Positions 54,373-54,627 of a DNA stretch of 64,000 bases are shown one piece after another. Under the pieces are notes generated by a model. It worked only from the letters and a program-made list of their open reading frames with translations. It searched no databases and had not been told where the DNA came from. The first letter of the stretch is position 1; every line of letters begins with the position of its first letter. The translations under genes and the position numbers were made by a program. This DNA is from Octopus sinensis (Eukaryota): positions 9,858,001-9,922,000 of the forward strand of contig NC_043014.1 of the NCBI RefSeq assembly GCF_006345805.1. Direction: 5' to 3'.

Positions 54373-54406
54373 ATATATATAATATATATTTTATTTTTTT
54401 TATAGA

Positions 54407-54460
54407 GGAGCTCTACAGGACTAGAACTGTTTCATTCAAATGAATCATCAGGAAGCTTCC
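54407..54460 (-). ncRNA. Type-I hammerhead, minus arm of palindrome
   Basis: gcttc CTGATGA ttc attt gaa t GAAA cag ttctagtc ctg TA gagc. Confidence 0.7.
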
Positions 54461-54505
54461 TGATGATTCTTTTGAATGAAAAAGTTCTAGTCCTGTAGAA
54501 GCTCC
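54451..54505 (+). ncRNA. Type-I hammerhead, plus arm of palindrome
   Basis: agcttc CTGATGA ttc tttt gaa t GAAA aag ttctagtc ctg TA gaagct. Confidence 0.65.
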
Positions 54506-54581
54506 TTCTATAAAATAAATTAATTTACTCTGCTATGTATTGATACCTTATACTGTGGTAACCCCGACTCAACCCGGGACC

Positions 54582-54627
<46 letters not shown>

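Follow-up and report, generated by a model that had tools for sequence, protein, structure and literature searches.

How did a palindrome come to place a hammerhead-type motif on each of its strands, and do these motifs act as ribozymes? The question is raised by a locus in a 64,000-nucleotide stretch of the Octopus sinensis genome (NC_043014.1, positions 9,858,001 to 9,922,000; the whole stretch is called the window, and its own numbering is used below), for which the original prediction had proposed back-to-back hammerheads in a fold-back made by self-priming. We consider it probable, at roughly 70%, that the palindrome is a decayed head-to-head pair of 3′-end fragments of an abundant non-coding retroelement, formed when a Penelope-like element (PLE) reverse transcriptase copied a short capped RNA from both sides of one cut and the cDNAs were joined at the 5′ end.

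The palindrome lies between two (TA)n microsatellites, at 54370 to 54389 on the left and 54586 to 54626 on the right, which represent the target. Its inverted repeat arms (54412 to 54455 and 54456 to 54499) are 44 nucleotides (nt) long, 95% complementary, and separated by a spacer of zero, and alignments showed that pairing runs outward to about 54401 to 54513 as a single hairpin. On the minus strand, the left arm (54390 to 54455) is an inverted copy of the last ~66 nt of the element, from the predicted transcript start to the 3′ end, without the tail. The right arm (54456 to 54520, plus strand) is a direct copy of the same ~66 nt, and its reverse complement differs from the left arm at 3 positions plus indels. 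The two meet at AAGCTT (54453 to 54458, midpoint 54455/54456), where the arms end at A2.6, which is the first helix I base and also the predicted transcription start. A 65-nt tail with a C/A-rich end (54521 to 54585, plus strand, ending in ..AACCCCGACTCAACCCGGGACCTACA) is found on the right side only and, compared with its sisters, has 4 small deletions. Thus, the AAGCTT centre, the 65-nt tail, and the (TA)n flanks named in the original prediction are all present in the sequence, the junction does fall within the 5′ strand of helix I, on its self-complementary AGCT, and the layout agrees with a PLE-type fold-back that lies within (TA)n and has its tail on one side. The expectation that a read-through RNA would form a long hairpin was likewise borne out, since the plus-strand RNA folded into one hairpin of −81.3 kcal/mol with a z-score of −16.7 versus shuffles.

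On the plus strand, the hammerhead-type motif spans 54454 to 54503 and comprises the helix I 5′ strand (54454 to 54459), CUGAUGA (54460 to 54466), helix II (54467 to 54477), GAA (54478 to 54480), helix III (54481 to 54484 and 54493 to 54496, with the loop at 54485 to 54492), A17 (54497), and the helix I 3′ strand (54498 to 54503), with a predicted cut at 54497/54498. Its minus-strand counterpart (54408 to 54457) has CUGAUGA at 54451 to 54445, GAAA at 54433 to 54430, and A17 at 54414, and its predicted cut lies at 54414/54413. The helix I 5′ strands of the two motifs (plus, 54454 to 54459; minus, 54457 to 54452) overlap at AGCT. The claim of back-to-back hammerheads held in part: CUGAUGA and GAAA boxes are present on each strand, but the proposed fold with cleavage at GUC is wrong, and both motifs are damaged. 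The boxes recur on both strands because the locus is a palindrome, in which a motif on one strand automatically appears on the other. Moreover, 0.41 matches to the CTGATGA..GAAA..GTC box pattern are expected per window, and two were reached in 10 of 100 shuffles, so the box pattern by itself is not beyond chance. Cleavage at the GUC of 54490 to 54492 would need five unpaired bases between H17 and helix I, and a fold with GUA replaces it.

The working fold is of type I. It consists of a 6-bp helix I (AGCUUC/GAAGCU), the core CUGANGA, helix II (UUUC-NNNN-GAAU), GAA, and a 4-bp helix III (ACAG-UUCUAGUC-CUGU), and the motif of intact copies is predicted to be cut after GUA. A descriptor of this fold (helix I of 6 bp, helix II of 3 bp plus U.U, helix III of 4 bp) was passed by the intact copies L005, L035, L041, and L047, and its strict form has a chance rate of 0.005 per 64 kb in Markov simulations. 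Applied to the motifs of the window, the strict descriptor gave 0 matches, with both arms failing. The plus arm carries C15.2>A at 54482, the minus arm has lost one helix I A (its 3′ strand reads GAGCUC versus GAAGCU), and each arm has lost one helix II U compared with sister copies. CUGAUGA, GAAA, and the GUA triplet are present in both arms, and subfamilies with CUGAAGA differ at the free position N7 only. The locus in the window is thus an ordinary dead copy of a repeat with two damaged hammerhead motifs. A match to a relaxed descriptor at 53330 to 53375 was rejected; it is at chance level and lies inside a coding remnant at 53250 to 53400 (plus strand), which looks like the C-terminal portion of a Tc1/mariner-like transposase (..FAEEWTKIPLETIQSLYESIPRRI..).

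Several other features lie near the palindrome. Left of the (TA)n, positions 54290 to 54369 (..GGCGGTTGGAGTATGGCTGCTCTTTCTGGTGAC..CCTAAATTGT) resemble the flank of a sister copy (L002, 1400 to 1480), so the microsatellite may be the tail of another repeat that is often hit by the palindrome family. The right (TA)n borders immediately on a long degenerate (GA)n, which is followed by (GATT)n-like repeats (54627 to 54730 and 54750 to 54900). A second small palindrome at 54179 to 54219 (TGGTAGACCAGCTTAATTAA / TTAATTAAGCTGGCCTATCA) has 20-nt arms that are 90% complementary, with 1 nt between them and TTAATTAA as the centre.

When a 188-nt query was searched against the 2.7-Gb genome, 816 candidates were obtained, and the 40 that were scored were all nearly full length at 93 to 95%; the palindrome of the window is one copy, 95% identical, of this abundant repeat. 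A 22-mer covering the centre occurs exactly 255 times across many contigs, and a 28-mer from the arm occurs 5,563 times (2,788 + 2,775), so most arms lie outside this exact palindrome. All sister loci examined (19/19) sit in TA-rich microsatellites. Among the first 100 arms listed, which come from one chromosome (0.28 to 42.7 Mb), there are 23 close inverted pairs whose start-to-start spacing ranges from 40 to 83, together with pairs that are hundreds to thousands of bases apart and with single arms. Junction sequences vary among copies, as seen in all 23 close pairs and many others, some having filler bases and some being asymmetric. The 255 exact centres confirm that other copies invert at the same nucleotide as the locus of the window, but inversion is not tied to that nucleotide, given the differing junctions and the 40-to-83 spacing in the 23 pairs.

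The single arms are linear copies that extend upstream. Several have 1.2 to 1.4 kb in common, which is TG/TA-rich and free of open reading frames (ORFs), and their 5′ ends differ; the long sister copies are therefore described as linear, non-coding elements of at least 1.2 to 1.4 kb with 5′ truncation. Distant arm pairs are long head-to-head copies, and the ORFs between them are translations of microsatellites. Among sister copies, the tail is found on either side, on one side, or not at all, and in one locus the 5′ border carries a tail that is inverted and isolated. At least four backgrounds that differ at N7 and loop 2 (L005, L009, L053, and L079) have this same centre, and the arms inside one copy have subfamily variants in common. 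Paired full palindromic units in the same orientation were seen at two places in the genome G000, C22:22678042-22678473 and C26:10228567-10229507, ~240 bp and ~750 bp apart, respectively; in the C26 pair the flanks (L002/L006) are duplicated too, which points to a local segmental duplication rather than a tandem insertion. A tRNA-like SINE (GGCG.AGGAGTGGCTGTGTGGTAAGTAGCTTGC..GGTTCCGGGTTCAGTCC) adjoins several copies (in the flanks of L010, L034, and L045). The palindrome family is absent from the descriptions in the available part of a recent octopus repeat annotation paper (PMC13282606).

Three features of the family, namely its high copy number, its homogeneity, and its TA flanks, would suit a 195-bp palindrome that is mobile in its own right, whether as a DNA transposon of fold-back or MITE-like type that targets TA or through a palindromic master RNA amplified in that form, and the outward arm pairs found at many spacings at first resembled terminal inverted repeats. 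We consider this origin very improbable. Because of the one-sided tail, the two ends do not form an inverted repeat, the arm spacings form a continuum, and the genome contains 5′-truncated linear copies as well as kb-long head-to-head pairs. There is no transposase ORF between distant arms, one and the same centre recurs on the several N7/loop 2 backgrounds, and the short copy is without the TATA region described below. A MITE or fold-back transposon was also rejected as a class, since its right end would be a tail with no inverted counterpart at the left and since the arm spacing is not fixed, as was a DNA transposon whose terminal inverted repeats would be the outward arms kb apart, in view of the nature of the intervening ORFs. 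Helitron and tRNA-SINE readings of the tail, considered in view of a B-box-like GGGTTGAGTCGGGG on the opposite strand, were rejected as well; the termini do not fit, and judging by how the copies are truncated, the tail lies at the 3′ end.

It is known from the accessible text of Craig et al. (PMC8557442) that PLE structures trouble whole-genome shotgun assemblies, especially short-read ones, and the original prediction had named an assembly artefact, i.e., a palindrome built from mis-joined reads, as a possible refutation. For this locus we regard such an artefact as hardly conceivable. The 255 identical centres are spread across many contigs, and the junction seen here, with ..CTTCAGGA preceding base 376 of L035, recurs at the same base as a loose end in contigs of an independent run that carries another organism label.

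The position of the centre was then compared with the starts of other copies. For 25 close pairs, with 50 arm ends in all, 31 ends were assigned to seven of 25 possible positions, those from A2.6 to C3, and two further arm ends that were mis-parsed also fall within A2.6 to C3 by eye. Linear copies that abut (AT)4 were counted as reverse-strand matches, with one listing per locus; there were 105 at most 14 nt before C3, 48 before GAAUGAAAC, and 19 before G1.1. Linear copies thus favour the same start, and copies begin preferentially at this site with or without a palindrome. All 31 genomic matches to TATAT-N-AGCTTCCTGANGATTTC were then inspected; position N is occupied by G in 21 of them, by C in 7, by A in 2, and by T in 1. 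CTGATGA is carried by 12 of the 21 G cases, and a parent with G at −1 for the CTGATGA type was found in none of the 32 linear copies. A G also precedes the A2.6 start of the right arm in five non-canonical palindromic junctions. Upstream of A2.6, TATAAA is located at a distance of 29 nt in 25 of the 32 linear copies and of 28 nt in 2, and this block is the best conserved upstream part, with a mean identity of 0.98. The distance fits the usual spacing between a TATA box and the transcription start. The start preference, the extra G, and the TATAAA at −29 are the reasons for which A2.6 is read as a capped Pol II start, with the extra G as a cap-type mark, i.e., the trace of a copied cap. The extra C at 7 of the 31 starts is not accounted for by this reading.

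These observations bear directly on how the two arms were joined. According to the original prediction, the fold-back arose by self-priming at the palindromic stem I: a single cDNA would have folded at its AAGCTT and primed its own copy. Such a snap-back would suit a centre that is self-complementary and common to 255 copies, and arms that have subfamily variants in common, but self-pairing of a 3′ end requires a loop, which the canonical centre lacks. Linear copies have this base as their start too, in most cases preceded by an extra G, which makes the site look like an RNA 5′ end instead; other junctions are common, several of them with filler bases; and the tail on one side fits two separate initiations (PMC11167929). 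We consider the snap-back improbable. As judged from these copy starts, the centre most likely represents the start of transcription, with an AGCT through which two cDNAs can be joined.

A head-to-head pair could then have formed in the following way. In long copies, the TATA promoter would start an RNA at A2.6 that carries the hammerhead motif first, runs ~66 nt to the end of the element, and continues into the tail. A PLE enzyme would nick both strands of (TA)n and prime on the RNA from both sides, and the use of two alternative start sites of reverse transcription would yield one arm with the tail and one arm without it. If both cDNAs extended as far as the capped 5′ end, pairing via AGCT could occur between their 3′ ends (..GGAAGCT), which would give the exact GGAAGCTTCC centre. 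Lacking the TATA region, the product could not fire again and would be dead on arrival. Because it would be without a promoter, the 255 identical centres would represent repeated independent events and not a propagating palindrome, which fits their occurrence on at least four N7/loop 2 backgrounds. Two properties of a purified anole PLE protein are relevant to this scheme (PMC11167929): it cleaves and extends both target strands, and its reverse transcription starts at two internal sites, the stretch between them being the tail.

Whether the RNA is cut before insertion was examined at the predicted cleavage site. Genomic 5′ ends gave no clear excess of copy starts at G1.1, the predicted cut site; about 11 of ~35 loci start in a 3-nt span of the 14 nt concerned, a span that is ambiguous with the TA repeat. 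This pattern of starts suggests that the inserted RNAs were mostly uncut; alternatively, RNAs that have been cut may serve poorly as templates, or the motif may be inactive. That a TATA-driven Pol II RNA begins at the first hammerhead base, and that a PLE copies this RNA, capped and uncut, from both target strands, is a tentative proposal drawn from the copy starts, to which we give slightly less than even odds.

The link to PLEs rests on the layout because no partner element with the same 3′ end was found. When the genome was scanned for GIY-YIG, 5,029 candidates were obtained, and 147 of the 150 scored were matches. The genome contains an autonomous PLE of 4.0 kb with (TA)n flanks and a 781-aa ORF that has a reverse transcriptase motif plus GIY-YIG at its C terminus. 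By blastn and tblastn, none of the 18 PLE-bearing loci contained an autonomous element with the 3′ end of the palindrome family. Two copies of the 4.0-kb PLE (L095, 2121 to 6112; L096, 2272 to 6271) are 98% identical and both flanked by (TA)n, and the L096 copy has ~35 extra bases at its 3′ end, a candidate tail in the form of an optional 3′ extension. No descriptor match to a hammerhead was found in the 4.0-kb PLE of L095 and L096. A PLE ORF fragment was found 2.8 to 3.7 kb upstream of an arm at L050, in the same orientation and 48% identical to residues ~453 to 775 of the L098 protein; it was rejected as a partner, as it is not colinear with the other long copies. Other PLE minimal-type hammerheads with a palindromic helix III (ACUCGAGU or ACAGCUGU) are present near PLE ORFs at L098 (8221 to 8253, plus), L086 (2621 to 2678, plus), and L097 (998 to 1044, minus), and that of L098 combines a helix I of 6 bp with GUC as its cut site.

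To evaluate the motif as a ribozyme, variation among the 32 linear copies, which are distinct and come from several subfamilies, was compared. In the 25 nt from A2.6 to U11.1, variation held in common affects only N7 and three positions of loop 2, with C3>A in both arms of the palindromic locus L023 as the sole exception, and the 20 bases upstream of A2.6 have ten variable positions. In contigs from three other organism labels, only loop 2 position 394 varies within the motif. The helices are invariant, with no compensatory changes among the 32 linear copies; the family is too young for covariation to appear. In all copies read, G10.1-C11.1 is replaced by U.U, or by U-A with a bulged U on each side, and helix II is weak. 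Folded in context, the hammerhead reached −6.8 kcal/mol versus −10.6 kcal/mol for a hairpin in which the 3′ strand of helix I takes part, and its shuffle z-scores were −0.98 and −0.08. Helix III and loop 3 read as near-palindromic (ACAG..CUAG..CUGU), both the stem halves and the central CUAG being self-complementary, and the cofolding of two copies gave −28.4 kcal/mol. The motif is located ~25 nt from the 3′ end of the non-coding element.

It is thus possible, though rather unlikely in our estimate, that the hammerhead-like motif is non-functional even in intact copies, the match being fortuitous or vestigial. The conserved 50 nt would in that case be a binding or initiation region of the reverse transcriptase or a promoter-proximal element, and protein binding or promoter-proximal function could account for the conservation of the motif instead. 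Rfam hammerhead models point this way, as none matched the window, or 96 nt taken from an intact copy, whether at the gathering score or with the limit relaxed to E ≤ 10; no Rfam family at all reached the gathering score in the window, and the only rows at E ≤ 10 were sub-threshold and miRNA-like, caused by the hairpin and the TA repeats. The U.U at 10.1/11.1, the energetically unfavoured fold, and the unremarkable number of copy starts at the predicted cut site speak for the same reading, as do the ~200 chance matches to the descriptor expected in 2.7 Gb by extrapolation from the rate per 64 kb. In addition, PLE hammerheads are weak in vitro according to the available text of PMC4209133, and insertion in vitro needed no cleavage (PMC11167929). 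A ribozyme is favoured, on the other hand, by the complete three-helix topology with its 6-bp helix I and 4-bp helix III, and by the restriction of shared variation, apart from the L023 change, to N7 and loop 2. Its helix III and loop 3 are near-palindromic as in the dimer-forming PLE hammerheads, a criterion taken from the accessible part of PMC4209133. Finally, the motif sits where PLE hammerheads are located, and the genome has other PLE-type hammerheads, one of them with GAAACAGCUGUA.

The palindrome family is useful since PLE transposition is poorly understood. Its stubs provide genomic support for priming from both target strands and for two initiation sites that bound the tail, and the cap-type extra G would mark the base of the hammerhead as the template's 5′ end. 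That an uncut capped RNA is the usual template, as suggested here, agrees with the cleavage-independent insertion in vitro (PMC11167929). If this is true, thousands of stubs would form a single-nucleotide record of RNA 5′ ends, with a ribozyme that rarely cuts the RNAs being inserted, and the role of PLE hammerheads, a long-open question, would become directly measurable from genome sequence. For annotation, such palindromes call for caution, as they mimic MITEs and miRNA precursors, the latter illustrated by the sub-threshold Rfam rows.

The closest known counterparts are the insertions of endonuclease-bearing (EN+) PLEs. As described in the parts of Craig et al. 2021 (PMC8557442) at hand, these are characterized by 5′ truncation, an inverted 5′-truncated partner, a one-sided extension, and a bias to (TA)n, and with Frangieh et al. 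2024 (PMC11167929) the likeness to our copies covers truncation, inverted partner, one-sided tail, AT-rich or (TA)n target, and a hammerhead near the repeated end. The anole PLE starts reverse transcription in an AC-rich stem-loop, and the tail in the window ends C/A-rich and can form a small stem. The palindrome family differs from EN+ PLEs in being without a reverse transcriptase/GIY-YIG ORF, so that it is at best a non-autonomous passenger. Its tail measures 65 nt versus 30 to 40 bp for PLE tails, and unlike the PLE pseudo-LTR, it shows no tandem arrangement in the loci read, most copies being tiny promoter-less stubs.

The motif itself resembles the minimal type I hammerheads of metazoan PLEs (Cervera and De la Pena 2014, PMC4209133). 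To the extent of the text available, these have the same CUGANGA/GAAA boxes, an open helix I, and a short near-palindromic helix III, and occur, as here, in high copy number with close motifs on opposite strands. The differences are found mainly around helix II. Position 10.1/11.1 is U.U here and a highly conserved G-C in that account; helix II has 3 to 4 A/U-rich pairs here and 6 to 8 bp there; and the extra U occurs on both sides of helix II here but only after A9 there. Loop 3 is 8 nt long here, and families that covary were not found. Non-LTR retrozymes (PMC7229834; bioRxiv 10.64898/2026.07.22.740005) are, in the available text of these sources, likewise small, non-autonomous, and equipped with type I hammerheads, and are thought to derive from the PLE pseudo-LTR. 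They are tandem repeats that give circular RNAs, however, whereas the copies here are dispersed single or head-to-head units: no tandem hammerhead arrays were seen, with one unit in the window and scattered matches in the genome that have occasional neighbours ~240 bp apart.

While the layout of the palindrome is already known for PLEs, the cap-type G and the promoter spacing are the detail that is new here. In full-length copies of other elements, an extra cap-type G is known to separate the target from the base that is transcribed first, and the same is seen at 21 of the 31 starts here, on a putatively PLE-mobilised RNA; PLE-centred literature searches, which were not aimed at this point alone, returned no PLE report of it. 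The promoter of Drosophila virilis Penelope (Schostak et al. 2008, PMC2377424, as far as its accessible text goes) is similar in that its start is upstream of the hammerhead and within the repeated terminal region. It differs in being internal and devoid of a TATA box, with an intron between the start and the hammerhead, whereas in the octopus family TATAAA lies at −29 and the predicted start coincides with helix I.
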